From contig JBEWZL010000243.1 in assembly GCA_045837725.1 (NCBI GenBank), positions 1-64,000 on the forward strand: a stretch of DNA of 64,000 nucleotides, read 5' to 3'. This DNA comes from Vermamoeba vermiformis. Lineage: Eukaryota. The notes under the pieces are model-generated. The model did not search any database and was not told where the DNA came from. It saw nothing but the letters and a program-made list of their open reading frames with translations. The number at the start of each line of letters is the position of its first letter. Positions within the stretch are counted from its first letter, which is position 1. Below, piece after piece: positions 1 to 36,265 of this stretch. The translations under genes and the position numbers were made by a program.

Positions 1-1201
1 AGCATCCAAACAGTATACTTACACCACTGCTGGTATTTCACAGTGCTTTCAATCATTCCTTTTAGAAACATTAACTTGACGTCGTTTGGAATTCCTTGAA
101 GGGCAACTCCTAGCATGTTCTTCACTGTGAAGGGTTGCTTTTTACTATAGTAAAATATAACGGATTAACATGGATTCATTTGATTAGTGGAATACTTACA
201 CATTTGAGAAGATTTTCGTCAGAGTGAAATGCGTCGTGAGGATGGAGGAAAGATCCTTGAAAGTTTCTCTAGGCAAATTTTTAAACAAAATAGTGCAATC
301 CCCTGTTCACAAGCTGTGTTAGTGTTGCTCCTTGCATCAAAGTCAAAATTCTTACCAAGCTTGTGAACAGCAAGCAGTTGGGATGCCTCCTTGGAAAAAG
401 CAGCCTTTTGTTCTTCTGAAGCTGTTTCATAAGTCACGTTGGCAGCTTTGGCTAGCAAGTCGCACATTTGATCAATCAAAATAACCTTGTCCATTAGGTT
501 AAGCTCCAGAAAGTTCTCTGTGTCGTTTTTCTGCAAGTCCATGCCAACACGAAACAAATCCTGAATCAAAAGTTTAGATCAAGCGGATCAAAACTATTTC
601 TACTTACTGGTTCATCCTTGGGAACTAGCACTTTAACTTGAAATGCTTGCAGCAGCTCCCACAACATGAAGTAGTGCACTACAACAGCACGGTGCTGCCC
701 TAAAAGTTCAAAGGTTAATCAACATAAAACAAGGTTGTGATCGCATACCAATGCAAACAGCATAGCTGATTTCCCCTGTTTGCTTGTGCTGAACAGGCAC
801 AATTGTTGGTGCTCCTTGGCTAGTACTCCACGGAGTGCAGTTCACCATCAAATTTCGCACATGATCTAAGGACAGGGCACGGATGTTGAGACTGCATCCA
901 GAAAGTTAGTTAATACAAACAAATTGAATTAGCAACTTACGCTCGTCCTTTGACAATACTATCAGCAGCAAAGATTGGCTTTGACATTGTGACTGTTGTT
1001 GCACCGTTTTGCAAGTCCTCCTGACAAAATGCAACATTGAAGTGCGGCAACCTAAACAGATATTAATAATTAATTAAAGTTTTTCAATTTCACTTACTTG
1101 AAGCGATTAGGCCGGTTGCAACAAGGATTTGCACAGGGCTCTGTTGTTGGAGTAGTCAAAGTCGTCACTACAGAATAGTTCTCCATGTCCAGCTCAAAAG
1201 T
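1..1201 (-). CDS. Multi-exon orphan protein with a ParB/sulfiredoxin-like motif (runs off window start)
   Basis: Manual splicing at GT-AG sites gives a continuous frame: ...SIVKGRALNIRALSLDHVRNLMVNCTPWSTSQGAPTIVPVQHKQTGEISYAVCIGQHRAVVVHYFML..., then joins ORF 219..569 (DLFRVGMDLQKND...). N-x-R, P-x-I-V and GQHR spacing resembles ParB-N. Confidence 0.5.
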
Positions 1202-1253
1202 CTGCAAAAAAAAAAAATGATTATCCGTGCATGGAATAAAATGACTATAGGTC

Positions 1254-1720
1254 GAGGCAGGACTCTATGGCCGGCCATAAAAGAAAAATTAAAAAAAAAA
1301 CTGCCCACACCTGGATTCGAACCTGCTCCAAGCACTGTAGCAGGCAGGACTCTATGGCCAGCCATAGAGGAAAAATAAAAAAAACTGCCCGCACCTGGAT
1401 TCGAACCTGCTCCAGTGCTTTGGAAGGTGGGCCTCTATGGCCGGCCATAAAGAAAATAAAAAAAATTGCCTGCAGCTGGATTCGAACCTGCGCCTTTGAG
1501 GCAAATAGCAGAACTCTATGGCCGGCCATAAAGAAAATAAAAAAAAAACTGCCTGCACCTGGATTCGAACCTGCTCCAAGAACTGCAGCAGCAGGACTCT
1601 ATGGCCGGCCATAGAGGAAAAATAAAAAAAACTGCCCGCAGCTGGATTCGAACCACAATGACAGGTTCGAGTCCCACTGTGGCAATTGATTTTTTTTATT
1701 TTTGTTATGGCCGGCCATAA
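1254..1720 (-). repeat. Tandem array (~84 bp unit) of tRNA B-box-containing units with TATGGCCGGCCATA palindrome
   Basis: Palindrome at 1266, 1353 (one mismatch), 1436, 1517, 1600, 1706. GGATTCGAACC (B-box GGTTCGAATCC on minus strand) at 1313, 1397, 1478, 1561, 1644. One inverted B-box GGTTCGAGTCC at ~1664. A-tracts read as oligo-T on the minus strand. Confidence 0.9.
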
Positions 1721-2329
1721 ATTTTGGTCTAAAAGTTGGTTCTCTGATCCGGACTTTTACGCAAGAAAGGCAAAAATTATAATTGATAGGCCATTTATCT
1801 TTATGATTAGATGTAAAATAAGTTAAAATTGCTGCATTTATTAAAAATAAATGTGCGTGATTTTTTCCGGACCAGATTTGATTTTAAAAAACCTTTTAAT
1901 TTTATGCAGCAGGCAAAAATATCTTTAAAAAAACATTGCATAATATAATTAAGATATTTTAATATTATTTAAGCGCTTTGTTATAAAAATTACTTACATC
2001 CGTTGGTAAGTCTGGCAGCTTCTTTTGCACCAAAGTCTGTTGGTGTCGTGTTGCGGATTCTTCAGCCATGATGTGAGAGTTGTGGTTGCGAGAGTAAACA
2101 AGCTTAAAAAAAGAAAGAAATTTTTACCGTTACAAGTCGCGCAGATCAAAATTGAACAGCTGTAGAAACACAACAACACCTGCCTTTTACCCTAATTTTG
2201 GTAAGTAATATTAAATGTAAATGTTTTTTATTGATTGCTGGTGTCAGTTCACCAGCAGTTCGTTGTACATGCTTAAATCCGATCCAAAAACTAATTTTTA
2301 TTTTCAAAATTCAGGACTGAGCCAAAAAT

Positions 2330-3550
2330 ATGAACTTTGCTGACAAAATAATTATGCTCTACGCAGGTGAGCATTATTATATTTTTGTTCTGTCATCTGT
2401 CTCGGTGAATCCTGACATCTGGCATTTTTCAGGCAAACCTCCAGGATATAAACCAACCGAGGAGGAGAGTATGTACTTATCTTGTTATTGACACCTGTTT
2501 TACTAATTCTACCTCCTGTAGTAAAGAGGGTGAATGCGCTTGCCCGTGCCAAGTCCAAATCAAAGAAGCAGTCTGAAGGTAATACTGTTGAAATCTTATC
2601 GTTCTTAGTCATTCTAACTGTTGATAATAGAAACTTCTTCTGAGAGTGACCTCAGTGACCGGTTTTCCCCACAAGGAGGTCCCACGAATGCTATTGATGT
2701 GGATGAGGTGCACGACACAGCTTCTATTCCCAACCCTCCAGCCTCCCCTGCGCAATCTCCTCCCCTCATTTTTACTGCAAATGTCAATAGCTCCAAATTA
2801 ATTGCGGAAATGCAGAAAAAATTCACCAACTTGGAAGTTATTGACTTGCAGTAAGTACAAATATTGTTAAATTGAATGTATGCTAATTGCTTGTTTTAGT
2901 GATCCAAATGGAATTTACCACGTACTGCAGCCATACGCTATGCAAAGCATTGTGCAAATTCCTGTAAGTATTTCTTTTAGTTTTTTAATGCAATGCAATA
3001 GACACAAGGCTAACCGCACAAATGACAGGTAATTAATTCTGCAAGGATTTCTGTTACTGTTCAAGGGCTTTATGAGTGCTTCAAGTTGTTTAAGCACAAT
3101 CCAAACATCGACGTGGTTATGTTGCAAAAACATCAAGAAAAGATCGTGCGCAAAGAGCCAGCAAAAGATTTACTTGGTTGGCAATTGGTAAGTAACTTTA
3201 TTTTTACTTCAAATATAAGCTTATATTTAAATTACATGACTTTACAGGGGGAAAAAAGCACAACCTTAGTTTCTGCCGAGATTGCGCACCATCTGTTCCA
3301 CATTTTGCCATACTTATGGGTGATGGAGAAATCAAAGCCAATTTGCTTGAAGTTTCTTCGTGATTTTCTTAAGGATGGAAAAAGGCTCCTGCTACTTGAC
3401 TCTGCCAACAATTTTGATATCAACGACTATTCCTCCCCTGTTTCCGTTGCGACTCTTGTTAAATTAATTCTTGAAGATCAGGCACAAGCAATAATAGAGG
3501 ATATCAAGAACACATATGACAATGTAGATCTGAGCATGTATTCTCTGTAA
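2330..3550 (+). CDS. Six-exon protein with divergent DUF6939-like C-terminal domain
   Basis: Spliced frame MNFADKIIMLYAGKPPGYKP...QIPVINSARISVTVQGLYECFKLFKHNP...ILPYLWVME...RLLLLDSANNFDINDYSSPVSVATLVKLILE. This resembles, from memory, the bacterial DUF6939 pattern (IPVP..SVEGIWQGLKVF..Y.WVLE..VLLDY.TN.D..D..PLSHA.LIK). Confidence 0.55.
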
Positions 3551-3776
3551 ATAAATGAAGTTCATGCAAATTTCTTTTTGTTGGATCAGGCCTTTTTGGA
3601 ACCTGTGGCAGTGCACAGGATAGAATAGAATATGATAGAATAGAATATACATGAAGGGATAGCAATATTTGGCATTAACATGGTGAGAGTTTGAGAATTT
3701 GGAAGAGGCGGGATCTGCTCAGCAGAAATGTTAAGTTCAAGTTGCAAGAAGACAACCAAACAGCAAATTTCGAATA

Positions 3777-4090
3777 TTATGGCTGGTCATAAAGATAGAC
3801 ATTATGCCATGATAAACTTGCAATTGAACCCAGGACTTTGGCAGGAGTCAATTTATGGCTGGCCATAAAGTAAAAATAAGATATTTGCCCACACCTGGAA
3901 TTGAACCTGCGCCAGTGTTGCAGCAACTCTATGGCTGGCCATAGAGGGAAAATAAAAAACTGCCCACACTTGGATTTGAACCTGCGCCTGGATTCAAACC
4001 ACGATGACAGGTTCGAGTCCCACTGTGGCCATAGATTTTTTTTATTTCTGTTATGGCTGGCCATAGACAAACAACGAAATTGCCCACACC
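3777..4090 (-). repeat. Second, decayed copy of the B-box/palindrome array
   Basis: Same unit and same terminal block (ccac.atgacaggttcgagtcccactgtggc) as 1254-1720, same orientation. Palindromes read TATGGCTGG(C/T)CATA and B-boxes read GGAATTGAACC, GGATTTGAACC, GGATTCAAACC. Confidence 0.85.
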
Positions 4091-4367
4091 ATGCTTCTCA
4101 GGCCTAATTTGTCACCACACCATTTACAAGCTTCATTTTAATGCAGCTTTTATTAGATGAAAATCAAACCAACTACACTAAGGCAATATTAAACACTTTG
4201 CCTGCAACGCAGTCAATGCATCACTTGCATAAGCCACAAAGCCATCTGCAAAAATCCATCAGCCCAATCACAGTATGTAAGTACTGTCAGAGCTCGCTTT
4301 GACACGGAATTCAAATTGGTCACTCCAGAACTACCCCAGTGCATCTGTGCCATGGTTGCAAAGTTAA

Positions 4368-4571
4368 CCCCCTTGTTGACCAAGTTTGACCAGACCCCGT
4401 CCGCGCCACGGGGACGCCCCCTTGTTGACCAAGTTTGACCAGACCCCCGTCCGCGCCACAGGGACGCCTCCTTGTTGACCAAGTTTGACCAGACCCCCGT
4501 CCGCGCCACGGGGACGCCTCCTTGTTGACCAAGTTTGACCAGACCCCCGTCCGCGCCACGGGGACGCCCCT
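4368..4571. repeat. ~50 bp GC-rich tandem repeat, 4 copies
   Basis: Unit ccttgttgaccaagtttgaccagacccccgtccgcgccac(g/a)gggacgcc; contains a CCCCGT/ACGGGG stem. Confidence 0.95.
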
Positions 4572-8708: not shown

Positions 8709-10116
8709 ATGCAACATGAAACAATATCCTTTCACGACTTCTATTTTCCTGAGGTAAGTGTTCGTAATTCTGCCAGTTATTTTTTACGTTTAATTTGTCA
8801 TTAAAGCAAGTCAAATGTTTAATTGGTAATTTACATTATTAGCATTTAGTAGTCAATATCGATCAAAACTACAGAATGCGATCAATTCGAGACTGCAAAT
8901 TTGCACACAATTATCGACTGTCAGTTTGATTGACTTCATTTTCGATCAGAAAGAAACCAACGAGATGGATGTAAAGCTCTGGACTCCTTACGAGGCGAAG
9001 CACATCATGGCCTCGCTGTACACCATGCGAAGACTCCCGTGCAGCAATCCGCTTTCTTTGAACGTGAACGAGTGGCGTTACCAAGTTGCCAAGTTCATGT
9101 TCTTGACCGAGTTCAGGCGAGTCATCGCAGACCGTGTCGTGGACAAGGAATCTGGTTGCAGGATTTTGATACGTAATGCCTGTCCCAACATTTGGTACGA
9201 CAAGGAGGGCTACGCGACCGCCAGCTTCACTTACTACAACCTGCGCTTTCGCCTTCGAGTGTCTCATTTGGTGATGTTTTGGCATCGACGAGATAGGCCA
9301 GGACCTTGGGCAGTCGACGAAAGCGGTAGATTCTTGTTGGAGCCGGACCAACCCAGAGCCAAGATTGACCTCAGCCACTTGTGCCACGTCAAACTCTGCA
9401 CCAACGAGGATCACCTCGAATGGGAGTTGACGGAAGTGAACGCCGAGCGAAACAAGTGCATCGTGAAAGGCCGTTGCATTGGTCACGTTCACCCCGTCAC
9501 AAAAAAGAGACTCAGGAGCTGCATCTTCCACCCTTCAATTAAGAACAATCAACTCGGAGAGTACGAAGATATGGACTCCCATTTCCAGCGTTTCCTCGCT
9601 TCAATTCGTCCTCTCGACTTGAACAGATACCGGCGCAATCTCAAAAACCAGATGGTTGCTCATTCCGAACAGTCGGCCAAGCGTTGGTACTCCAGTGCCA
9701 TGCAGCTCATTCGCCTGGTACCTCTTTCTCCGTACAAAATGTTCAATGACGACAAAACGGAGAAATTTTGGCTCAAGGAGCTGAAACTGAACGATCAACT
9801 GGAAGATCAATCAGTTGACTCTGACGACGATGATGGTTCTCAGCCTGATTCTTCCAAATCCAATTCTGCACTTCACTCTGATATGGGCACACTACCCTTG
9901 ATGCCTGACGACGATGATGGTGAATCTGAGCCTATGGATACCGAAGATATTGTGTACGATTCGGAAGCAACAGTAGATGGAGGAGATGATGACAGTGTAA
10001 TCTACTTGTACAGCGATGAAGAGCAGGATTCGAACGACTCTGATTCTGATTACTACTGCGACAGCGACGTTAGCTTTGACTCCGCTGATGAAAGAAGCGA
10101 CTCAAATGATTGTTGA
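8709..10116 (+). CDS. His-Cys box (His-Me finger, I-PpoI-like) homing-type endonuclease with long acidic tail
   Basis: SHLCHVKLCTNEDHLEWELTEVNAERNKC..C..H..C (9373-9522) matches the I-PpoI zinc-binding loop pattern SHLCH.x.C.N..HL.WE....N..RN.C. An upstream exon (..FHDFYFPE) splices in frame via intron 8753-8874. The true start may lie further 5' (~8557). Confidence 0.85.
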
Positions 10117-11025: not shown

Positions 11026-13880
11026 CCCCTGCGGGGATTGAATTAATCCCCAGCTTAATGTGCGCAGAGCGCAATTTATCGGTCGGATTCTACGTTCATG
11101 CAAAATGCATCAAACTGACCTCGTTTTGATCGAATGAATCCCAAGACTAAGTGCTGTCAATTGTTTGGATCTATCTTGGCTTGTACAATGACCCCTGCGG
11201 GGATTGCATTAATCCCCAGCATAACGTGCACGAAGTGCAAAATCAATTAACGACACTCGAAGTTTTTGAGCAACGTATAATGTAAAGCACTTTTTAATTG
11301 GAATTACCCCCTGCAGGGATTGAACTAATCCCCAGCTTAATGTGCACGGAGCGCAACTATTCGGTCACATTCTACATTGGAGTGAAACTTTTGATTAATC
11401 CCTTACTACTTGCAACAAACAATAGTCAAAATCATAATCTTGAGGATCAGACCCCTGCGGGGAATGCAGCCCCGGAACTACACGTGCGCTCTTTTTTGTT
11501 CGGCCTTTTTTAGCTCCCAATTACTTTCTTAATGCTCTTCTTTGTTAGCTCCAACTACATTCTTTATGCTCTTTGTTTTTTGATTTTCATCCTCAATTCA
11601 CTGTTTTGTCATCAAGTCATTTGCAGCATCACATTGTCATGCCATCTTCAGGCTCAGTAAATTGTCATCATCATAATGATCCTCAATATCATCATCATCA
11701 CCATCATCCATAAAATTGACTCATTTTTCATCATTTCTCAGTGATCTAACCCCTGCGGGGAACACAGCCCCGGAACTGCACACGCGTTCTTTTTGTTTGG
11801 CCTTTACTTAGCACTCAATAGCGTTCTTAATGCTCTTTTTCATTAGCTCCAACTACTTTATTTATGCTCTTCTTATTTTAATAATCATCATCAATTCACT
11901 GTTTTGTCATTAATTGATTCGCACCATATCATCATTGTCATGATAATCATCTTCATCATTACATTTTCATCATCATCATCATTAAAACTACCCAGTTTTT
12001 GTCATTCCTCCATGAACTACCCCCTGCGGGGAAAGCAGCCCCGGACTACAAGCGCGTTCTTTTTGTTCGGCTTTACTTAGCTCCCAATTACCTTCTTAAT
12101 GCTCTTGTTTGTTAGCTCCAAGTACATCTTTATGCTCTTTGTTTTTTTATTTCCATCCTTGATTCGCTGTTTTGTTATCAAGTCACTCACACCATATCAT
12201 CATCAAATCATCATCTCATCATCATCATCACCATCATTGAATTATTTCAAGTATCATTGAATTTCTTGGTAACCTACCCCCTGCGGGGAAAGCAGCCCCG
12301 TTACTACAAGCGCGGTCTTTTTGTTCGGCGTTAACTTGCTCTCAGTACCGTTCTTTATGCTCTTCATTGTTAGCTCCAAGTACATTCTTTATGCTCTTTA
12401 TCCGTTGATTTTCATCATCAATTCACTATTTTGTCATTCGCATACCATCATCATAAGGGTCCATTGTCATCATCACCATGATCCTCATCCTTATCATCAT
12501 CATCATCCTCATCATCCTCATTGAATTAATTCAATTTTCATTCATTTTCATCTTAATTGACCCCCTGCGGGGAAAGCAGCCCCGGACTGCACGCGCGGTC
12601 TTTTTGTTCGGCATTTACTTGCTTTCAGTGCCATTCTTTATGCTCTTCGTTGTTAGCTCCAAGTACATTCTTTATGCTCTTGATTCGTTCAACCATATCA
12701 TCATCATTGCCATGATCATCATCTTGTCTTCATCATCATCATCATCATCATCCTCAGGATGATCATCATCACTGCATCATCATTACATCATCATCATCAT
12801 CATATCATCTAATTTCAATTTTCATTCATTTTCTTTAAAGTTACCCCCTGCGGGGATCAATCCCCGGAACTGCACTAGCGTTCTTTTTGTTTGGCTTTTA
12901 CTTTGCTCTCAATTCCGTTCTTAATGCTCTTTTTGCACGACATTGTCACATCATCATTATCATCCTTCTCATGATCATCATCATCATCATCATAATCATC
13001 ACCATCATTATCATCATTGTCATCATCATCAACTAATCTCAAATTTCACTGATTTTCTTCATAAGTTACCCCCTGCGGGGATTGATCCCCGGAAAAGAGT
13101 GCGCACGGAGCGCTATTAGATTCAAATACCGTTCTTTTTGCTCTTTTTCATGTGCGAAACTATGGGAATTACGCGCGTTAGCGCGATTATCCCATGCTTA
13201 AAGCACACGTGTACCAGTTAACCATCATTGATACCATTGCAATGATGATCATCATCAACATCATCGTCATCATCATCATTTAATTATCTCAATTTTCATC
13301 ACTTTTTTCAAAACTACCCCCTGCGGGGATTGATCCCCGGAAAAGAGCGCGCGCGGAGCGCTATTAGATCCAAATGACGTTCTTTTTGCTCTTTTTCATG
13401 TGCTAAATGATGGGAATTACGCGCGTTAGCGCGATTATCCCATGCTTAAAGCACACGTGTACCAGTTAACCATCATTGATACCATTGCAATGATGATCAT
13501 CATCGTCATCCTCATCATCATCATCATCATCTACTAATTTCACTTTTCATTGACTTTCTTCATAACTTACCCCCTGCGGGGATTGATCCCCAGAAAGAAC
13601 GCGCGCGGAGCGTGACTAGATCCAAATCGCGTTCTTTATGCTCTTTTTTACTTGAAAACGATGGGATTTACGCGCGTTAGCGCGACTATCCCGTATTTAA
13701 AGCACGCGTTGCTGTTACTTTACATTGATTACTATAGCAATGATGAAGAATGACATCCTTCATTCTTCTATTGATTTAAAGCATTCGTGTACCAATTAAC
13801 ATTCATTGATTAGAATTAACAATGAAATTTCATTCTCTTATCCTCATCATTTCATTCATTTTTATTTGGGCCCCGCGGGG
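11026..13880. repeat. Long-period (~115-300 bp) tandem array anchored by ACCCCTGCGGGG-loop-CCCC, with (CAT)n tails
   Basis: Anchors at 11026, 11192, 11307, 11452, 11750, 12020, 12277, 12561, 12844, 13069, 13317, 13570 and a remnant at 13871. Confidence 0.92.
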
Positions 13881-15455: not shown

Positions 15456-16375
15456 CCAAGTATTTAAACAATGCTTAATCTGCGTAACGGTCACTTCCTG
15501 ATTTAGAAAACCGACGTGTGTCGACTGCACGTGCTGCCAAAAAATTGTTCTGTGCTGGGATAAATCCTGGCACGGCTGACAATTTTAGCTCCGCACTGCT
15601 TTCATAACTAACCCACTAACTACGAGCACCACACCACAATGGTCGTGGAATTAATTTTATTATTTTCTTGGTCCAACGAAAGCAGCTGTGTTGCGTTTTG
15701 AATTAATATTAACAACACCAAGGTTCCGGGAGCTGATCGGCTGTCTGCTCCACTAACTTATGCTCGTACAGTGCGTAGTGCACTGCGGTGAGTTTTCCCT
15801 CATTAATAACTCGGAGCAGAATTTATCTTAATAATATTTAATTTAGATTTTCATCAGATCGTGGTCACGCGTTGTTGTTCTCCGCGCTCACTGCTGCGTA
15901 GGACTTAATTCAAAATGTCTCTGCGGCACAATGCAAAGACACATGCTTATAGGGTGCTAGCCAACAAGTACCTGACATTTGGTAAGTAAAAGAATTTTTA
16001 AATCTGGAACTTTAGATGCGCGGCATCTAATTTTTATCGTTTGTGTAGTGTAGCTTGCCTCCTTATAAGTGCCACACGTTCTGCGAGCTTCAACAGGACT
16101 GCTGGATAGTGAGCAACCTGCGTGAGGTAAGTCAGGTAGATTTTAACCTCGATCACGAATCTGACCCGTTGTGTGCAGCGTTTCATGACACGTCAAGTCC
16201 AACACAACCTCATCACTTTGATGCCAGTGCACGCACTGCTGCAGCTGGCCTCTTTATAAACACCACACGTCCCATGGGCTTATATTGGTCTGCCTAAGGT
16301 AAGTCAGGTTCGGTGTGCTTTTTTTAACTCGATCTAACACTCACCTGCCCAGTGTCCAGGAGTCATGCTCTCCCT

Positions 16376-17083
16376 GTGACCAGTCACACTCTCTGTCTGT
16401 GACCGGCCGGTCACGCGCTCTCCCTGTGACCGGTCACGCTCTTGCCTGTGACCAGCAGCCGGTCACGTGCTCTCCCTGTGACCAGCTGGTCACACTCTCT
16501 TGCCTGTGACCAGCCGGTCACGCTCTCTTGCCTGTGACCAGCCGGTCACACTCTCTCCCTGTGACCAGCCGGTCACACGCTCTCCCTGTCTCCCTGTGAC
16601 CAGCCGGTCACGCTCTTTCCCTGTGACCAGCCGGTCACACTCTCTGTCCGCAACCAGCTGATCACACTGCCTGCCCCTTGTGACCAGCCGGTCACGCTCT
16701 CTGTCTGCGACCAGCTGGTCACACTCTTTCCCTGTGACCAGCTGGTCACACTCTTTCTCCTATGACCAGCTGGTCACGCTCTCTGTCCCAGCTGGTCACA
16801 CTGTCTGCCCCTTGTGACCAGCCACGCTCTCTGTCCCAGCTGGTCACGTTCTCTGTCCCGCAACCAGCTGGTCACGCTCTTCCCTGTGACCAGCCGATCA
16901 CGCTCTTTCTCCTGTGACCAGCTGGTCACACTTCTGTCTATGGCCCCTGTGACTCAGTCTCTGCGCCTATGACCCTCTGGTCACGCTCCATGTCCTAGTG
17001 ACCAGCTGGTCACACCTAGTCTCTACCCCTGTGACCTGCTGGTCACGCTTCTGCCTATGGCCCACTGTAACCTATTGGTCATG
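16376..17083. repeat. Palindromic minisatellite GTGACC(A/G)GC(C/T)GGTCAC, ~26 units, ~27 bp period
   Basis: Repeated gtgaccagccggtcac/gtgaccagctggtcac separated by pyrimidine-rich linkers; decays to the right. Confidence 0.95.
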
Positions 17084-17288
17084 CCTAGCAGCTGGGTTGT
17101 AGCTGCATAAATAAAGCAAAATCTAAGGGTATCTGGATTTTTTTATTTGCCCTAAGACCCCTAAGCCCTAAAAGGCTATATAATAAATGTTTATTTACTT
17201 TTTTCACTATTCTTTGGGTTAGTGAACGTTGACAGGCTTTTTGAATATGGTTCGATTGCCTTGTAACTAGGTTTGACCACCTCAGAAA

Positions 17289-17450
17289 GCCTCGGAACTT
17301 GGTTCGACAGCCTCGGAACTTGGTTCGACAGCCTCGGAACTTGGTTCGACAGCCTCGGAACTTGGTTCGACAGCCTCGGAACTTGGTTCGACAGCCTCAG
17401 AACGTAGTTCGACTGCCTCAGAACTTGCTTGGAACTTGGTTTGCTGCCTC
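17289..17450. repeat. 21-bp tandem repeat (5 perfect + ~2 degenerate)
   Basis: Unit gcctcggaacttggttcgaca. Confidence 0.95.
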
Positions 17451-24324: not shown

Positions 24325-27300
24325 TTACATGAGCATTTGTTGCAACTCCAATGGCAACATTTGTAAGAAAGGATTTGGTTCGTCATCAACAACGAAGTCC
24401 GTGTCAATTTCAACACACGTGGTAATTGCGTATAACAAACGATCACGTGTTACTTCGAGGCTTGAGTACTGTGGTAAATCCAAAGAGAAGAAACAAGTGT
24501 GCGCCTCTGGCAAGAATTGATCTGGATCTCCGTCCTTGAGGAAGCGACACAGAGCGAAGGGCATTGGCCACTCGTTATCAGCGGGCAAACGAGACCTACC
24601 CAACACGAAGCGAATCAACAATTGCTTTTGCTCTTCGGTGAATCCTTCGACTGCTTCCCAGAAGAACTTGACGTATTGAGCGGTAGGATCCACCATTTTG
24701 TACACGGTGTGGCTCTTTAGCACATTGACGTCAACGCTACGAGAACCGCAAACTCGCTGCTCGACCTCACGTGGCGTCAGTATGTTCAAGAATTGTTGCG
24801 GCAAGATTTGGTTGATGCCTGAAAAGATCTGTTAGCTTTCCGTTGCTGATCGAGTAAATTTCAAACACTTACCTCTAATCATCGCTTCAACTTGAGGAGC
24901 GAACTCGTGCAGTTTGTAATCTTGCAACAACTTGGCAAATTCTAGTCTGTTGTCGAAGGTAACCGTCTCTTCATCACCGCCAGATCGCAATTCAACGTCT
25001 CGGCCATCGGCTGACTTTGCAGTGAAATTTTGGAAAATGACGTCTTCGAAGGTTTCACGCGTCAGCGCACCATCACCTGCCAAGGCACCGCGAATGTTTT
25101 CCAAAAGGTGCGCAATGTTCATGTCAATATTCTTCAAGTCCTCGACGTCCACTTTGAGGCCTACAAGTGGTTTCCAAATGATAGACGGCCAGTCAAACTC
25201 AAGCGGATTGCGAGTACGGATTGCTATGCCAATCAGCTTGCCAATAAACTCGAAGTATTTGATGCTCGCGACAGTGCTCGCGGAAGGGTTTGGCACGAAC
25301 TTCTCTTGATCTGGACCAAGCTGGAATTGATTATTCGCAGTTGGGACGAATAACTCCTTCTCGCTTTGTATCTCCTTGCAAACTTGAGAACTGCAAACAA
25401 CGTTAGATCCTATACTACAAAAGTAATTAATCTTCTTACATTGTCTCGCGGTAAGGTCCACCAATGTCCGTGGCACCTTCTTTCTCGAAGATCACTTCAA
25501 ACGCACGATCCTCTTGTCGCAGTCGCTGGCTTTGTATTTTCTGGAATTGCTTGAAGACTTGACGCCAAAGAGCTCCAGCATGACGATTCAGCTTCATCTT
25601 GGGTCTAATCAAGTTCGTTGAGGTCTCGTGCAATGCTGCTGTGAGCCACTCGGTCTTCATTCCCCAGAACAAAAGTCCTCGGAGATGACTTAACGAAGCC
25701 GTAATACTCCACTGATCGACGATCTTTCGAAGGTCCAAGAAAGGCAATAACTTGCCTACTCGATAATTGAAGTACTTGAGGAGTTCAAATCGTGCTTCAA
25801 TAGCCTCCATTGTGAAATTCTGTAAAAGAGGAGCCAGCTGAGAAGTGTCGCAGTCCGCTAAGCTGAACTGAACGGACTCGTGAATGCCATACGGCGTTGA
25901 GTCTTGAGTGTGCAAGCGCTTGAACTTGGCGATGGCGTTGATGATAGCGACAAGCTGCTGGTCCTTGTGCACAGTCCAGTCATCAAGCGTGTCCAAACAA
26001 ACCTTCATCATCCTCTCGCTCTTTGATTGTTGTTCTGCAGCCGTTTGCTGATTGAATATGGGCGTGACGGTGAAGCGGAAGCCCCAATCGGGGAAGTTCC
26101 TGTTTGACATAAAGCGCCATACAAAGGAGTTCCCCTTGATCTTCAGCTGAGCAGGGAAGGTCTGGCTGAATCGTTCGATTAATTCACCTTGCTCGTCTTC
26201 AAAAACCAAGAATGCGTGGTTAGGAACAAGTGAAGTACGTGGATCGAACTCGATGAGCAGATCAGTAGCGTTCTTGATGCTGATAGAACTGTCAAGATTG
26301 CTTTGAGGTCTGTATGGGTGCGTTGACTCTTCAACCCAAACTTGACCTTGGTGTTGCCTGAATTTGCCAGTGAACGCCTTCTTTATGAAATCCTTCGAGA
26401 AATTCTGCCCCTTGAGCAACTTGTCCATCACATCGGCGAGTTCTTGACCGTTCTTGAAGAAGCCGTAGCTCTTCTTGAATCCCAACTTCTGCGAGTCAGG
26501 CAGAACTTGGCCCTTCTCTTCGCAATCCAATTGTTTCGCGTGATTGACTTTGATAAGCACCTCAATCATTCGTTGCAAGTACAAAGAGTGCGTGCTGGCA
26601 ATGGACTTTCGCTCATCTTCATACAACTGCTTGACTTCAGTCTCGAGCATTGCAAGCAGATTGACGTTTGGTCTGTCATCTTCATCAAATAAGCGCCATT
26701 GGTTGAAGAGTCTAGCGATTGCTGTAAGAATGCGAATGCGGTTTGGAACGGCAAACTCTCGCTTGTGGTAGTGCTTGATTAATGCCTCGAAGAGTTCATT
26801 GCAGTACAAAGGCTTCACCCAAACGGGTTCCATGTTGAGCAACCAATCAACCACGAACATTCCAAACTCGAAACTGGGCTTTGTGAGCATCTCTTCGTCT
26901 GTGAGCTTCGGAGCAAGAGGAACGACCCAGAATTTGTAGCCCCATTCGGGATTTTCCTTGTCAGTCTCGAACGTAAGCCAGAAGCTGTTCGAGTTGACGA
27001 TTGTTGTCGGCCATGCTTGGTGACCCTTGCCATGGAAGATACCAATCAGCTTACTAAGACTGGCGTCTTCAAAGAATGAGCAAAAGTCGAAGCCAGCTTC
27101 AGTATGACAATCTTTGTCGAAAATGACGCAGCAACTTTCCGAGCCCTCCAGTTTGATCATGCGACGGAACTTCGCATTGTTTTGGTACGGATGGGATGAT
27201 TCTTCAACAAGATATGGGTACTCTTGATCCAAACTGCCAATCAAATTGCGAATGCACTCGGAGATAAGCATATCAGTGAACTTTGACTGGAAGCCAGACT

Positions 27301-30300
27301 CAGCGGCTGGCTGTTGTGTTGTGAGTTTGAGGCTTCTCCGCGACTGGTTGCAACTTGGGACTAGCAGGCTTTGGATTACCTGGCGTCGGTTGCATGTGAA
27401 TTGCAGCAATTGATTCCTTTCTCCGAACGCGCACAAGGTTAGACTCTTCCCTGCGCAATGGAGCAGAAGCATCGTTGATTGTCTTGATCCATGCCTGTTG
27501 ATCTTGCGCGTTCTCGCAACTGAAAATTAACGTGTTGTTCGGAATGGTGACCTCGAAACAGTTGTCTCGGTTTAATGTCTTGGGTGCTGCCTTGACCGCG
27601 ATTATGTTCTTCAATTCTGTCTCGGACATTGGAGGCAAGGGCTTTGCCTTTTTGACATTCAAAGAGTTTTCAGTTAGCACAACAAATCTCTCCATCCATT
27701 GCTGTCTTCCAATCGACGGACCAGCTGAAAGCATTTGAAGCGAACCACTACAATAAAATTAGTACCTTCGCAAAATAATCAGAGTTAGAAATATACCTGA
27801 ACAGCACCTTCGCTGGTACTCTCGCCGGTTGGAAAGCTGCTGTTAGCTTGGCTACACCGCCGCTAACCGGCTGTTTTACAGGACCGACGGCTGTTTTCAC
27901 GGGGCTCGGACCACCAGGCGCAACAATACCAACCTTTGGTCCAAATTTGGCCGTTCCAATCTTTGGTGGTGCCGTGCCCGATGGAGGCATAGGCAACTTC
28001 GGGTTTGACTTAGCGAGCGGACCTTGCAAAGGTTGTTTGGGACCAACCATGCCCTTGACAAAACCCGGGCCTTTACCTTGGATAGGCATTTTAGGCAACG
28101 AACCCTGTTTGGGAATGGCAGGGCCGGTAGGATTTGTTACTGACGCAGCGGCTAGCTTCTTTCGCTCGTCAATTCTGGGTTTGGCTAGATTGAGCCAGTG
28201 AGCGGCGATTTTGCGAACTAGCTGATCGACACGGCTCTTGGCTCCCACACCATGAGGCAATGATCTAAAGACAGTCTCTTGCTTCAAGATCTGACGCACT
28301 CTTTCTTTAACCAGCTTTAGCTCGTTGTTCTCCTTGAGACTGAAATCGACGCTCTCTACCGAAGTAGCAGAAATATTCTCGAGGATCATCAACTTTAGCA
28401 ATTGAATCAAGCTGATCGCTCCTCCGATAACATGCAACGAGAGCGTTTCAGTGGCGGGCACGTTCTTTAGGAAACTGAATGTAGCTTGACGCGAGTATAG
28501 AACTGCCAATTGCTGCTCGAGTACTGCTCTTTGCTGTTGAATTTCGGCTTTGGACGCTCTTTGGAACTCTGTGTCAACGAGTTCCAGCGAGTTGACGTTA
28601 TACCAGAACAACTGTTCGCTCCTCTTCCTCATCTTCATCGTGTTCATCCTCGTCATCATGAGAATGATCATCGATATTGGTGATACGCAACAGGACGTAT
28701 TTGTCTTTGATATTAATGTTTTCCACAATGCCAATCTTGCCAATAGTTGAATTCATCTGCGAGACCCAGAATCCTTGCGTTGCTACGTCAGCTCGAGCAA
28801 CTGCCAGGCGCCAACCGATTTGAACGTTTTCGATGGCAATGTTGCCCTTTGAAGCCTCGCTGCCATAAAGATCCGGCAAGAGAGCAGAGCCCTTGGCGCT
28901 GAATGCATCGTTTGGAACAGGTGTTTCTATCACCAAGTAGATATTCTTCGGGTTATTCTTGGCCTCCTCTTTCTCGCACGAGGCACAGATATTGAAGTTG
29001 GGCTTACTCAAAGCCTTGTAGCGAACTCCAACAATCTGCGCCTTGTTACAAATGTCGCACTTGACATCTTTGTGAACGAGATCCGAAGCAGGCTTCTCCA
29101 GCTTGTCATTCTTGTACAAATTAGGCAACAAAGGAAGTACAGCGCTAGGAGGCGGGTAGATGACGGGGAATAAGCTCGAAGGACATTCCTTGAAACGTAT
29201 TAGAATTCGGCTGGTAGAGTATTAGAAAGCTTACTCTGCGAGAAGGCAAAGGAACATTGACTTTGTAATAAATCTGCCACGATAGTCTATCCTTTGTCGT
29301 GTAGCACTTTTCGCACAGATCGAAGTCGGGCAAATTCGCATTCTTGTAACGACAGCCCTTGATGGGGGAAGCACCGCAACCATCACACCGCCAGCCAACA
29401 TGAACATCAGTGGCACCAGAAACGGCTCCTTCTTCAAGCTGTTTCTTATTTGCGATGAATGATAAGAATTCCAAGAACTCGACTTCTCCGTCATTGTTCA
29501 CTGATAAACGGTTAGAGTACATTAGCAGTAGAAATTACTTACAATCCATTTGTTGGAATGTTTCAATATCAGCATCATCACCACCACGACCAAGAGCAGT
29601 CAGAGCTAAGATGAACTCCGCCAGTGAAATTCGGCCGTCTCCATCAAGGTCGAAAACGGAAAACTCTTCTTTGATCTCGCGGACATCTGCAAAGCTCAAG
29701 TTTCCTGCTTTCATAATCTTCAACAGCTTATCGTTGAATGATAAGTTGTCGTCATCTTCTTGCTCTTCGACTTTTTGTGCCTTCGCTGCAACTGCCTTCT
29801 TCTCGGCACTAGCGGTGAGATCTTGATCGGGCAAAAACGATAGATAGCGGCGAGCGTTGACAAGCTTCTGTTCTGTTGCTGAAAGCTTGACTCGATCCGT
29901 CGTGCTCAGCGGTGACAAAGCTAATTGCACCAAACTTGGCATGATCGTTTCTTGCAAAACAGGATCGAGGTTGTTTTGTGGGAACTTGACTAAAGCGTCC
30001 AGTGCCTTGATTGACGTCATCTTCACTCTCGCGAACAATGCTGCTACAGTCTGAGGTGCTGTCTTGACATCAATGTGGAATGGTATAATTGCTTGGAAGA
30101 CTTCACATAGCTCTTTAGTCAAAGGAACCATCTCTGGCTTCACGTCAATATCTTGACTGAAGTGAATGTCGTGTTCATTCTCGACAACGATGAAGTCGAA
30201 GCGATCTAACACGTGCTCTGACTCTTCGGCATGCGCATCACGAAGCATTACTTCGTATTTGCCGTAGTTATTCGTGGCCACGATGACACCATTCTGGGAG

Positions 30301-33300
30301 CCCAATGCTACTCTGGCACCAATCCTCGGATGGTCTTTGAATGCACCAATTATCTCTAAAGATTTGCAAGCCTTATCGATTCTGGGCTTCCAGTTTTGAG
30401 TGATTGAATTGACGTTCATCTTCGCCCCCTTGACAAATTCCGGAATGCTCTTCAAACTTTCCATAATCGCGTTGCGCAAGTGAGTCTCCCACTCTGCTCC
30501 TTGAGTCAGCAGATGACGTGCGAGCATTACAGACTCGTAATCGTGTGCTTCAATAACATCACGCTGATGTTTCAGTGGTCGTGTCAATGCAAGTAATTCT
30601 CCGAACTTGTTGTTCATGTCTGTTGTGCTTGGTTAGCGACGCTTCTAATAATGCCTATTCGATCTATCTTACCAAAAGCGAATGGCCTTTGGCCGAAGTT
30701 GACCGCCACCACGGCACTTGGGGAATTGAGACCAACAGCAGGGAAGAAGCTTCCAAATACGTTACGGAATGCAAGTCCAACCGTCGCTCCATTTCTTGTA
30801 AAAGCGACGGATCCCGTTTCACAGTCCCAGAAAAGTCCTGCAACGTCGCTTGGTTTTTCCCAAGTGGGGCCAAACTCCGCGCCGGAACCCTCTAATCGGT
30901 AGTTAAACGCATTACCTATCGATTGATTAGACTCGTTCCATAAGTGTGATAACCAACGTACCATCGTCAGCGTGGTAGCCGTAGCTGCCGTGTGACCAGC
31001 CTGGCATACCGTCCATCTGAGGAATCTGCTCAGCGGGATACAATCCAATGCTAACAGCTGCATCTTTGCCCGGATTAACGATGGTAACTTCGTAATAGAA
31101 AAACTTGGCAGCAGTTGGAACGGACCGATCTGAGTGAACCAAGCTGACAGTATCAGTTCTCATATTGCCGTTAATAAGAACGTATCTAAAGACAAAAATT
31201 GTTAGTTTAGACACCTTGCTCACGGAACAACATACCCGTCGTCAGACACCATAACAGGACCGCACGTGTGGCTGCCGTTCATTTTTGTCGGACCATGGCT
31301 AGCCAAAGCGAAAGGAGTAGCTGAGTCTGCTTTTTGTTTAAGTGACTTAAGCAAATGATGCGCGTTGGTAGGCACTGGTGAGCTTGCAGGAGTCACTTCC
31401 AGAGCGGGCGCTAACACGGCAGGGCCAAGGGAGCTCATAAATCGCAGGCTACGCAAAAGTAGCGAAGTTGTTGACGGCTCCGTGGAACGCGCAAGCAATT
31501 CGATAAAGACTTTGGCGAGTGTCTTGTTGCTTCGCAGTAAGGTAGAAACTGATGACTTGCCCAAAAGAGTGAAGAACAATGCTACAAAGCGTCGCACCCA
31601 CAAGCCAGTTGTTTTTGTGGATGTCAGCACGGGCTGCAATGCTTCCACAAATTCGTTCAGCAAGCCAACAACTCCTTGATCTGTTTCTGGTGCTGTTTTA
31701 AACACGCTGTGACCAACCGACCAGAACACAAGTAAGCCAAGGTCCGAATGATTGCCAGAGTACAGCGTGCCAGCCTTCTTCAAGATACCACTCTTGTGTA
31801 TTAACGTCGCGTCAGAAGGCAACCAAGCCACAGTAAGAAGTGACGTGGCGGCGTCAAAAGTAAGGTGATGTTGCGGGGTGCTGAGGAGCTTGCCTAATAG
31901 GCCCAAGTACAAGTCGGCAAATGCCTTGCTAAGCTTTTGCTTGGAGTCGACTGAAGCGCCCTGAAGCTGATCCAAATAGCTACTGACATCATTCTTACGA
32001 GAGGTGAACGCCTTTCCAACAGCCGCTAACACGTCGTTGATGACAAGTGGATAGTTGAGGGAATTGACCAAATCCAGCACGTGAACAAACGCCTCCTCGC
32101 GCTGCTTCGCTGCCAATTGCCCTTGCTTGATAGATGCGTACAGTACTTGAGCATCTAAATTGCTAAGCAAAAAGGATTGGACATGCTCGACTGCGACGTC
32201 CGCGTTTGCCACAACACAGTTCAATAGTAACTTGGCGCGTGCAACAATGCTTGATGCAATCTCTTGGTAAAGATTGGTTTTCTTGGCCAACAGTCCTTTG
32301 GCGTCGAGCCCCTTAGAGAAGTCATCAGATGCACTTGCTGCTTGCACTCTCATCATAATCTGCTGTCTAATCGCTCTAGCGATACTCCACACAGATGAAA
32401 CCGCGGGTGGAACAACAGCAGGAAGGGGCGCGCTTTGTGCTAACTTCTTCACTTCGTCAACAAGACTAGGACGGAAGTGCAATACAGCCGCGATAGCGTA
32501 TCTTTCGGCAACTGTAACACTTCTTCTGAGGGTGTTATTACGGTGTAATTGAATTATTGAAATCAGCATACGTACCCTTGGTGTGAAGGTCCTCCAAGCA
32601 GTCTAGTCTCCAACCACTTTGCAAGCTTGGCAACAGGCTTAGTGGCATTTGCGATATCCAATAAATCCTCGACCACCTCGTCATTCTTCTGACTTTCGTC
32701 AATGCCGGCATCAAATAGCTTGGGATCCATCTTAGTGTCTTGATGTAGGGCGGACATGCCAGTCATGCCCTTCAACAAAGCGCCAATGAGAGAGGCAAGT
32801 CTAGTTTCGAGTTCAACTGTCCAAGGCACCTGAGGATCTTCTTTTGGTTGAGAATCTTCGTCCTCATCCTCTTCTTCATCCTCATCGTGCGGAACAGCTA
32901 CACCAGTGATGTAACACTTATAACCCCACGCATCGGAGGACATCTCTTCAGGGGTATGGAAAACAAGTGCCAACGCATCACCAGGCACAAGTAGTCGTAC
33001 AGGAAAGACGGACTTGTCCGTAAGTGGAGGGCACACTCGGACGGTTCTCTCGGGATTCATGATATGCAAGTAAGTCCCCGGGCCAAGTGCCGTTTTGGCA
33101 TCGAACTCAACAATCATGTAATCAGCCCTGCTAGCGTTAGTACTATTAACTGTATGTCCCTTAAGCTTACTTTGGGAATCCAAATATATCCACGGTGTCA
33201 GTGTCAGGTTGACAAGGATGCTGCGACTCTCGGACTTCTTGAGAAGGCAATTGTACTTGCGACATTCGATGCAAAGCCTCTATGTCATCAGCAGGACCAT

Positions 33301-36011
33301 AGAACAACTGGACGTTGGTGGCATCGACTTTCTTGGCAAGTTGAATCAAAGGCAGTAAAAGTGGCGAGATCGCTTCGTAATGCTCAGTAGCATTAAACTG
33401 TAGCAAATCGACGGCAGAGCGTAAGAGTGTTTTCAAAAAAGTCTGCTTTTCGAGGTCTTGGTATATATAAACGCTGGAAGCCATCGATAAAGTTGTTGTT
33501 GCCTCAGTGATAAGTTGTCTTGCAACGAGTCCAAACAGCTGAATGTTGGATGCGTCGATGGCCAATGAGTTAAGAACGGCACTGAACAAATCAAGAGCCT
33601 CAATAGACTTCATCATAGCCGTGATGGCGGCAGCAGTGCCATCTGCGTTCTCAGTAGACAATCCAAGTAAGTTGGCCAAATGGGCGTGATGGCGGTGACG
33701 AGCATAAAAATGACGGTAGAATAATGATGCGTTCGGCCCGTTCAGACTAACCACGAACTGCGTCTTCTCCTTCTGGGTCATAAATGAATCCCAGCCAATA
33801 ACAAGCGACTCCATAGCCAGTTGGAGCAAGCTCTCCTGCTTCTCGCCCTGCAGCTTAACCAAGATGGCCTTCAGCTCTGGCTCCGAGCTTTGACCAAGGC
33901 GACTCTGTCGAGAGACGTAAAACAAAGTAGTCGCTAAAATCTCGAGCAAATATTCCGTCGATTTGGGGTCCTTGTTGATTGCCAATAAAGTCTTCACCTC
34001 TTCGACGACGAGCATAGTTGCCTCTACGAAGAAAGGGCGAGTAGGAGTACGAGAGCCAATCTGACAATCGGATTAAATACTAGGCCTCTACGCAATAAAT
34101 TATACTTACGTGTTGATGAAGAGTTGGACGCTGAGATCTCGCGAGAGAGGCCAAATAAGGTAAAAGATCTTTGACACTGGCGACACGAGCGATGTCTTCT
34201 GAGTTAATAGGCAACTCTTCGTTGACAAAATAACCAACCGAGCCAGTCAAAGCGCCGTAGTTCCATACCAAATTAGTAGTTCTATCGTAACTGCATGGAG
34301 TACCAAGAACTTTGTTGAGCTTTTTTGAAGAAACCACGTGACCGTCTGTAAGGTCGTAGATGATTGAGTAGTGTTGGGAAGTATTTTCTTCGAGGATGGT
34401 TGCAACAGCGCCCATGAAGTGCCCGTTTGTATAGTATTGCGCACTGATGTCCACGGCTAAAGAGAATTAGTATTGACATCACATCGCTTGGAATACTTAC
34501 TTGTTATGCTCGCGCCAAACACTGAAGTTGTTTGTTGACTATTCAGTACCACAGTTCTTTCATATACTGGCAAATTGTCCTCGATACGATAGATTTTAAC
34601 GGTGAAGAAGTCACGGCAAACAGCAAATAAACGTCTGCCGTCCGAGGTAATATAACCTGGATCCGGTGAGCTCTCACTAGGTTCATCTTCTTCGGGCAAG
34701 GCTCCGACATCTAAGGCTTGCAAAGTGCCAAGATCTAATCTGTGCAGCTCATCGTCGATGAAAGCATACAAACTTCCATTGATGACTGCCAAACCATCAA
34801 CCGTGGAGGTCTGTTCCACTGGTTGAGTGAGGTTCACTTCGCCTTGCTTGGTGTTGTTGAAACCAGTGCCTACTTTCATTAAACCAACGGCCTTATCGTA
34901 CACATAAATATATGTGCCATCGCTAGCTACGCAGTGTGAGGACTGGAATTCCGCGTCACGAACATCACCGTACGCAGCTTGAATGGGTTGATTGAACATC
35001 ACAGGGAAGCGAGCTGATATTCAAACGTTAAGCACCCCATTACTAGACTTATTAGAAGCACTTACTAGTTAACTCATCGGGGAAAACGCTAAGAGCGCTT
35101 CGTTTGTTGACATTATTTAGAAGCTCTACGTGACGTTCAATATTGATTGCCTGCAGCTCAGCTGATGATTGAGAGACGCGCAAAGCTGCCAATAAGCCCC
35201 TTACGGATCCTAATCGCAACAATTAAGCAGCTAATTTTCGGTATACGAAGTACGCTTACCTCGAGATCCGGCTAACAGGAACAAAGTCTCCAAAGCCGAT
35301 TTCTTCATTTGCAAATCAATTGATGGCGTACTTAATACGGAAATAATCCATTGTTGGATGGAATCGAAAGAATCTTGCGAAGCATTTCGAAGTTCTTCGG
35401 CGACAGCGGGATCCTGTTCCAAAAAAATCAGATAAAATTAATAATTATTTTCTTGTACATTACCTCAAGAAAGCTTTGTAATTCTGTTAAAGTTTCTTTC
35501 AGATCTTCCACCCGAAAAGTTTTGACAGCTCTAGTAATTAAACGCAGCTGCACTGATAATAGCGATTTTGCTCCGATAACCTTCTTGTCCGACTCCTATT
35601 GGATATTTTAGATTAGTTATGGCACTATTTTTGGTTTCTGAAAAAATTCAATTCGCTTGAACTCACCAACTCATGTTGACGCTGCTGCTCGTCTTTAAGT
35701 GCCTTGATTACTTTGCTTAAAATAATACCGCGCTTTTGAGCGTTTTGTTGGCCAAAGGTCTGGCCAGATGAGCTGACCAAATTGGAACGGAAATAGGCGA
35801 CAGATTCAGAAAGATTCTTCCACAAGAATTCGCTGTCGTCAATGTCGTAATAAAAATAATGGTCATCTCCATTATATTGTTCTGTTTCCAACCGTTCCTG
35901 AGCGACAAGTTGCTGAATCTCTGCACCTTTAAGTGAGGTTGCCAGCTTGTTCGTCACGAACTTAGGATCAAGCAGAGAGGCGCTATCAACGTCCAACCAC
36001 GATCCTTCCAT
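24325..36011 (-). CDS. Very large HECT E3 ubiquitin ligase with SPRY, EF-hand, two ZZ zinc fingers and PH domain
   Basis: HECT: EGATDIGGPYRE, FEFIGKLIGIAIR, LPEAHTCFFSLDLPQY. SPRY: FYYEVTI..GYHADDG..AFTRNG..FPAVG. EF-hand: FDLDGDGRISLAEF. ZZ: CDGCGASPIKGCRYK, CDICNKAQIVGVRYK. PH: WMERFVVL..WIKTI. Confidence 0.92.
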
Positions 36012-36265
36012 GATAAAAGAAGTGGTTGTGTTGTCACCTACGCATAAAGATAAAATTAGGAAAAAAAAACAAAAAGCAAGATACTCAAAGGACCACGAAA
36101 CCACAACTGTCAAACAGCAATCAATAGAATATAATTGGGTGAACTCATCCGATAATTGTAATTTTCATAGCTCTAGATCTTCACTTGCCCGATCAAATTT
36201 CTTGTGCAACAAGGTCCACGACTCTTTGCAATCACGCTGAAACATTAGACACTAATATATGCATT

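Follow-up and report, generated by a model that had tools for sequence, protein, structure and literature searches.

What kind of element is the array of short, B-box-bearing units at positions 1255..1722 on the minus strand of the window, by which we mean the whole stretch of 64,000 nucleotides analysed here? An earlier note had described at 1254..1720 an array in which a constant scaffold alternates with a variable segment, and had named guide-like small RNA genes, a tRNA-Leu/Ser-derived SINE or satellite, and clustered TFIIIC sites as its possible identities. The array is real: TRF calls it at 1255-1654 with a period of 83, 4.8 copies and 78% matches, and TRF, an nhmmer unit profile and the sequence itself together give a rearranged unit (U0), four complete units (U1-U4) and a truncated unit (U5), with motifs that recur beyond chance. 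Read on the minus strand, U1-U4 are 81-87 bp each and follow one another head to tail, with 81-84 bp between unit starts, as in a minisatellite or short satellite-like array.

Each complete unit runs from a 20-bp palindrome through a variable block of 22-23 nt and a 26-nt T-arm/acceptor-like block to a T-rich spacer. The palindrome is CTCTATGGCCGGCCATAGAG or a variant differing at one base; pattern match and coordinate check place the perfect copy of U1 at 1597..1616, and its equivalents lie at 1514-1533 (U2), 1433-1452 (U3), 1350-1369 (U4), 1263-1282 and 1703-1722. The 14-nt palindrome core TATGGCCGGCCATA, with up to two mismatches, has 10 matches against 0.11 expected. The variable blocks, all read on the minus strand, occupy 1575..1596 (U1), 1492..1513 (U2), 1411..1432 (U3) and 1327..1349 (U4); the four segments quoted in the earlier note are exact. 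The T-arm/B-box and 3'-acceptor-like block of U1, GCAGGTTCGAATCCAGGTGCAGGCAG, was located on the minus strand at 1549..1574 by pattern match and coordinate check, and equivalent blocks stand at 1466-1491, 1385-1410, 1301-1326 and 1632-1654. Its consensus is GCAGGTTCGAATCCAG(G/C)TG(C/T)(A/G)GGCA(G/A), with 22 of the 26 columns invariant among U1-U4. A T-rich spacer of 13-18 nt, containing a T8-10 run, follows every unit; the one 3' of U1 (1534..1548, minus strand) reads T10ATTTT, resembling a Pol III terminator, and its counterparts lie at 1453-1465, 1370-1384, 1283-1300 and 1617-1631. On the same strand, U5 (1255-1282) breaks off at 1255, 8 nt into its variable block, and U0 extends over 1617-1722.

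How close are these units to tRNA genes? The A-box consensus is TRGCNNAGTGG, and the units resemble it in TGGCCG only, that is, in the first 6 of its 11 positions; to that extent the A-box likeness noted earlier stands. Against the general B-box consensus the agreement is complete, as had been claimed: each unit carries an internal B box, GGTTCGAATCC being exact at five of five forward positions of the array, and with up to one mismatch it has 10 matches, against 0.87 expected and a count that 0 of 100 shuffles reach. In geometry, too, the units match a tRNA gene: the T-run sets in 12 nt past the B box, where a tRNA 3' end and terminator would place it, and TGGCCG stands about 40 nt upstream of the B box, compared with 44 nt in tRNA. 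Human tRNA-Ser sequences quoted in PMC10359600 contain ATGGCCG and GCGCAGGTTCGAATCC, and the latter is found in U2; this comparison was made by eye and against the human sequences rather than the organism's own tRNAs. We infer from these motifs and their geometry that the ancestor of the units may be a tRNA gene of class II and Ser type, terminator included.

No tRNA survives. ARAGORN finds no tRNA gene in the 64 kb; Rfam gives no match at gathering score in the window, no tRNA match at E<=10 in the 3.2 kb from 1100 to 4300, and no match of any family at E<=10 to a single unit. The best scores of hammerhead and other known RNA families at the arrays (E 0.13-0.33) fall far below gathering scores and are not credible. 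By eye, the T stem of the unit has an A-A mismatch and the 5' acceptor strand is absent. A split or permuted tRNA was likewise rejected by eye, as neither order offers a 5' acceptor strand able to pair with the 3' block. The units do not fold as cloverleaves, as the earlier note had said. Tandem tRNA-related units are known from other eukaryotes, for example in Entamoeba and in the Ser-Tyr-Tyr clusters of Arabidopsis; in the reports on them (PMC2652664; bioRxiv 2020.02.26.962373), however, those units are 0.5-1.8 kb long and hold intact, foldable tRNA genes, whereas the present ones are 83 bp long and hold no detectable tRNA. With tRNA-derived SINEs and satellites the units share an internal Pol III B box of tRNA type, a tRNA-sized head, and a location in introns and gene flanks. 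Unlike SINEs, they end in oligo-T on the promoter strand with no LINE-related or A-rich 3' tail, match the A box in its first six bases only, carry a 20-bp palindrome in place of the D arm, and stand strictly head to tail at only two known loci. Neither the units nor the array edges show the LINE-like, A-rich or simple-repeat tail and the target-site duplications of a SINE.

The second locus, which the earlier note overlooked, is a decayed copy at 3775..4098 on the minus strand, recovered by pattern, profile and alignment searches and confirmed by coordinate check. Positions 1436-1719 align with 3778-4065 in identical orientation, at 71% identity over 306 nt. Alignment finds no similarity between the arrays in either flank, which means that the element was copied in one piece and its surroundings were left behind; a segmental duplication is rejected. 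A unit-profile search finds no further copies in the 64-kb window beyond these two arrays. Array 2 (all minus strand) consists of a barely recognisable unit at 3775-3794, two units identified by local alignment at ~3795-3870 and 3871-3946, an inverted module described below, and a partial unit at 4069-4098 (coordinate check).

The right end of array 1 is also more than the earlier note allowed. Rather than a plain unit, DNA folding reveals a 126-nt imperfect inverted repeat at 1597..1722, composed of the palindrome, an A/T-rich spacer, a B-box/acceptor-like arm, a 9-nt centre at 1655-1663 and a mirror arm. Its DNA fold has an energy of -38.9 kcal/mol (z -10.2), equalled by 0 of 200 shuffles. 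Both arrays carry this module past their last ordinary unit, and it is the part best conserved between them, 1635-1719 matching 3981-4065 at 89% identity over 85 nt. Since the partial unit of array 2 lies beyond it, the module is internal and not simply a terminus.

Sequence difference is distributed very unevenly along the unit. Among U1-U4 the mean pairwise difference is 0.058 in the palindrome, 0.478 in the variable block, 0.083 in the T-arm/acceptor block and 0.26 in the T-rich spacer, and none of 100,000 column permutations places as much difference in 23 columns as the variable block holds. The earlier claims that the variable segments diverge more than their flanks and keep their length are thus both upheld, and the heterogeneity along the unit is genuine. 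A comparison by eye of U1 with the array-2 unit at 3930 gives the same picture: palindrome and T-arm together agree at about 42 of 46 positions, the variable block at roughly half. The scaffold is thus more uniform than the variable block both within array 1 and between the arrays, and because plain neutral decay does not predict so strong a contrast, either constraint or a local mutational bias is needed to explain it.

The variable blocks are not independent sequences. Local alignment gives U1 and U4 a score of 16, where shuffles reach 8 at the 99th percentile and 10 at most; the relatedness of units 1 and 4 that had been noted before is therefore secure, and we call their blocks subtype a. 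The U3 block (subtype b) scores 10 against the array-2 unit at 3854, and the array-2 unit at 3930 scores 7 against the U1 and U4 blocks. The U2 block (subtype c) stands alone, with no significant likeness to the others. On these local alignment scores the blocks form three subtypes, a, b and c. Both arrays carry an a-type unit followed by a b-type unit (3871-3946 and ~3795-3870 in array 2), and since both subtypes are present with their order kept, a and b predate the duplication. In addition, when the U4 block is reverse-complemented the U3 block aligns with it at a score of 9, a likeness that suggests a small inversion.

These properties bear directly on whether the array is a set of guides. 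As in CRISPR-like repeat-spacer arrays, a constant scaffold of about 60 bp alternates with a 22-23-nt block of conserved length. Unlike CRISPR spacers, however, the blocks are homologous to one another, common to both arrays and matchless elsewhere, and the host is a eukaryote with spliceosomal introns. Across the rest of the window the four 22-23-mers find no match with up to four substitutions and no common 12-mer, and against 2.9 million viral contigs they find no exact match; the unrelated segments with matching targets that a guide-RNA array would have are not what these blocks are.

Array 2 shows which parts of the unit can be lost. There the central CpG of the palindrome is gone in four of four cases, the forward B-box consensus in four of four (mostly through CpG transitions), and most of the T-runs have disappeared; at least array 2 is therefore unconstrained. 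Relative to the array-1 consensus, its differences at the palindrome core and B box are nearly all CpG-to-TpG/CpA transitions, and cytosine methylation targeted at repeats is one possible cause of this form of decay. Across the entire window CpG is not depleted (observed/expected 1.02). In array 1 the CpG is kept in six of six B boxes, five of six palindromes and two of five acceptor blocks; the difference between B box and acceptor block (Fisher ~0.06) is suggestive only, the units not being independent. This asymmetry and the contrast between scaffold and variable block are the main evidence for constraint or homogenisation acting on array 1, and the evidence is weak because the units share ancestry.

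We propose, giving it about an even chance, that the element is a low-copy, palindrome-rich tandem repeat derived from a rearranged class-II, Ser-type tRNA gene and copied once as a block. Of the three identities suggested earlier, the tRNA-Leu/Ser-derived repeat or satellite is thus the one we favour, for its Ser-type motifs, T-run geometry and tandem structure, its decaying second copy and its lack of a foldable tRNA. On this proposal the founder unit would have retained ATGGCCG from the start of the D arm, today one half of the perfect 20-bp palindrome, along with the T arm and B box, the 3' acceptor strand and the oligo-T terminator, while losing the cloverleaf. Head-to-tail amplification would have followed, with gain of the 126-nt inverted repeat, and the whole block would then have been copied to a site 2.1 kb away, where it is decaying. 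Change in the arrays would come from slippage or unequal exchange, from template switching driven by the palindromes and from small inversions. The variable block may be what remains of the anticodon/extra-arm region, surviving as three old subtypes, and its position between inverted repeats would make it prone to rearrangement. The element would then be neutral or selfish DNA and not a set of genes; as an incidental by-product, its five perfect B boxes might plausibly bind TFIIIC or support weak transcription by Pol III.

If this reading is true, the element itself matters little. It would nevertheless mean that a palindrome-rich mini-satellite can start from the 3' half of a tRNA gene, B box and terminator included, and that palindromes may concentrate rearrangement in one block of a repeat unit and so mimic a repeat-spacer design. 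For genome scans it would carry a caution, in that a constant scaffold with a variable block of fixed length can arise without guide function.

The first alternative is that the element is a non-autonomous DNA transposon, foldback-like, MITE-like or rolling-circle, with internal tandem repeats, whose palindrome or inverted-repeat end would be recognised by a transposase encoded elsewhere and so mobilise it. The duplication of the block without its flanks would be expected of such an element, as would the insertion of both copies in non-coding DNA beside genes, and the hairpin-forming inverted-repeat module, with its 89% identity and fold z of -10.2, is just the part that has been conserved best. 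Unit number differs between the copies, as it does in the bivalve tandem-repeat MITEs and Helentron derivatives (DTC84, pearl, Cg_HINE), which, in the reports on them (PMC3879986, PMC7492417), likewise move up to about five satellite-like units as a block to genic sites and contain palindromic or hairpin motifs. As described there, however, those elements are high-copy and have defined flanking modules, whereas the present arrays have no termini, target-site duplication or family, and the host is no mollusc. Foldback elements have long inverted repeats of tandem subrepeats with unequal arms. Here the likeness ends with the arms, which are extremely lopsided (five units against one half-unit), and with the internal position of the module in array 2, where a partial unit follows it. 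The inverted repeat stands at one side only of array 1 (1597-1722), and by eye no target-site duplication is seen at either copy, as a MITE or foldback element would require. Helitrons and Helentrons end in a 3' hairpin about 10 nt before CTRR and begin with TC; inspection by eye finds no CTRR at either edge, the palindrome abutting the flank directly at 1719/1720. No transposase gene adjoins either copy, and the element is known from two loci only, with no copy in metagenome, viral or prokaryote contigs nor in ORF calls. Taken together, these observations make a transposon rather unlikely. The two arrays yielded neither terminal inverted repeats at both ends nor target-site duplications nor further copies, so that the term repeat family, too, rests on two loci.

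Relatives were sought in contig, genome, phage and protein collections. The combined palindrome and B-box pattern has no match in viral contigs and 16 in metagenome contigs; none of the 16 loci has the palindrome and none is tandem, and we rejected them as relatives, regarding them as chance matches or real tRNAs. The T-arm/acceptor pattern is absent from prokaryote genomes and viral contigs alike, and the unit has no match in phage records. A single match to the palindrome plus GCAGGTT in prokaryote genomes, in a Clostridiales MAG, has no B box and was set aside as chance. At the protein level, the minus-frame ORF of the array gave 58 candidates among ORF calls in 5.8 billion protein clusters, none of them significant, and the plus-frame ORF gave two marginal matches among 1.84 billion representative proteins, both translated from other tandem repeats. 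The first of these, rebuilt as a 74-nt unit, is unrelated (local score <=12). The second, P0125, was judged unrelated by eye, sharing a T-arm-like peptide motif and nothing more; for this protein an assumed 59-nt period gave contradictions. We found no published description of the unit, and no paper mentions its exact 14-nt motifs in a setting related to this one.

Could array 1 instead be a battery of Pol III mini-genes? In such a battery TFIIIC would bind at each B box, transcription would stop at each T-run, RNAs of 50-75 nt would result, and the 22-23-nt block would give each RNA its own specificity. The five perfect B boxes, the T8-10 run after every unit, the near-tRNA spacing from TGGCCG to the B box, and a conserved scaffold around a variable block of constant length are all what one would look for. 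Against this, the A box is matched at its first six bases only, the variable blocks are related subtypes without a match in the rest of the window or in the viral contigs, and array 2 has decayed in exactly the promoter and terminator elements.

Folding does not help the case for mini-genes. The U2 variable block keeps a short hairpin (4 bp, 3-nt loop) directly against the T-arm, resembling the extra arm of a class-II tRNA. In the RNAalifold structure the variable block pairs with the constant 3' block; 91% of cells are paired, a share that drops to about 40% once the partners are shifted along, the structure having been derived from the same five sequences on which the pairing was scored. Covariation is weak: a double change is seen in 2 of the 21 pairs, and 17 of 500 shuffles reach the observed score. 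Variable block and T-arm together fold no better than dinucleotide shuffles (z -0.57, +0.15, -0.69, -1.29 and +0.73) and only slightly better when compared with mononucleotide shuffles (-0.44 to -2.01). Beyond the palindrome, which is a DNA palindrome anyway, the units have no convincing selected RNA fold. A scan for bacterial-type terminators found no site in array 1 (5 sites against 5.1 expected).

Expression data are silent on transcription of the units. Two cDNA runs with the same species label, X22 and X24, were read to about 1.85 billion letters each. The cDNA reads that reach array 1 fall on its A-rich spacers (1279-1300 and 1528-1548). Of these reads, 625 of 631 (X22) and 227 of 227 (X24) overlap the stretch only in part, their loose ends being poly(A); they are a mapping artefact of mRNA tails. 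The exons of the host gene are essentially uncovered in both runs. Because such libraries would not contain a Pol III RNA of 70 nt, the reads speak neither for nor against Pol III transcription and lend the mini-genes no support. We regard a battery of mini-genes as improbable. The earlier suggestion of guide-like small RNA genes is not supported, given homologous subtypes in both arrays, no targets in the window or viral contigs, and a hairpin no different from shuffles.

A further possibility is that the arrays are clusters of TFIIIC sites that are not transcribed, akin to ETC sites, and act as putative chromatin boundaries bracketing a divergent gene pair. TFIIIC sites consisting of a B box alone are established in yeasts and mammals. 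Array 1 offers five tandem consensus B boxes, and the two arrays flank a domain of about 2 kb that includes a divergent promoter region, with gene starts at ~2069 and ~2334. As at ETC sites and tDNA boundary elements, a B-box consensus stands here without a functional tRNA; known ETC sites are single, however, while these are 83-bp tandem units with terminators. The clustered TFIIIC sites suggested earlier may exist in array 1; in array 2 none of four forward positions keeps the consensus B box, so that one of the two supposed boundaries is dead. Nor is there any sign that the organism uses such sites, and the model gives the palindrome and the T-runs no role. We consider a boundary function quite improbable. 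Should the five B boxes recruit TFIIIC inside a Pol II intron, the locus would gain in importance, as a natural test case for Pol III/Pol II interference or boundary activity in a eukaryote that has been little studied. Least probable is the most elaborate reading, in which array 1 would comprise five working tRNA-Ser-derived Pol III mini-genes making tRNA-tail-bearing RNAs of about 50-70 nt, their variable blocks different by design, as a targeting small-RNA family that uses tRNA processing (RNase P/Z or external-guide-like), with array 2 as its dead paralogue.

In favour of the tandem repeat that we propose, the array is stable between the window and an aquifer population. DNA of this organism is present in sequencing runs from aquifers, soil, sludge and wastewater. 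One aquifer metagenome spans 1000-4200 with an identity of about 99.7%, and its contigs over 1436-1546, 1517-1620 and 1591-1712 show 0, 0 and 1 differences, with the array intact. One aquifer SNP falls in a variable block (1338), and one, at 3936, restores the CCGG core of a palindrome. The variable blocks show no hypervariability between the window and this population. At 1543 there is a loose end with a depth of 12.7, compared with about 5.5 in the unique flanks, a hint of either a further near-identical copy or a structural variant. Structural variation is also seen next to array 2: one aquifer contig departs from the window at 3701 and continues with 255 unrelated letters, and another has a 7-nt insertion behind 4093.

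Both arrays lie in gene-associated DNA, according to gene models read from the sequence by eye. Array 1 lies inside intron 1 of a minus-strand gene with its ATG at ~2069, a donor at 2000/1999 and an acceptor before 1213. GT-AG introns in the window are about 55 nt long by the same reading, and this one, containing the array, is inflated to 786 nt. Array 2 follows a plus-strand gene with a DUF6939 domain match, at a distance of about 230 bp from its stop codon. Other domain matches in the window include ankyrin, EF-hand, Kelch, HECT, PH, ZZ, SPRY and EGF.

Finally, we note several other features of the window. Its first 20 kb hold many repeats and few recognisable genes. A 50-bp tandem repeat at 4368-4570, 270 bp from array 2, has 4.1 copies with 96% matches, and a GC-rich hairpin motif, CCCCGT...ACGGGG, recurs in each of its units. 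In 11505-13709 tandem arrays whose periods are 248-283 bp overlap one another, with long (ATC/CAT)n tracts, a recurring CCCCCTGCGGGG hairpin motif and a strongly negative GC skew. The region 16368-17427 holds a minisatellite whose periods are 27 and 84 bp (about 20 copies, 71% matches) and, behind it, a 21-bp repeat (6.7 copies, 94%). A 428-aa ORF at 8830-10113 on the plus strand has a His-Me finger/HNH endonuclease motif (PF05551, E 3.5e-7; PHROG 826, E 1.8e-4) and is a candidate for a eukaryotic gene of homing-endonuclease-like or mobile-element type. On the minus strand, 24328-36164 holds a very large gene for a HECT E3 ligase; its introns are short, and it has PH, two ZZ, SPRY, EF-hand and weak CUB matches. 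The best public relative of one 696-aa exon is 38% identical, and Atlas gave generic HECT clusters only. At 55235-60497, also on the minus strand, an NAD-specific glutamate dehydrogenase has ankyrin repeats just upstream on the same strand, and the two are probably fused, the ankyrin-glutamate dehydrogenase architecture being common to many environmental proteins of about 1,300 aa. One environmental protein is 93% identical to the glutamate dehydrogenase exon, the next are at most 61% identical, and the nearest named relatives, dictyostelids and others, reach 50-54%.
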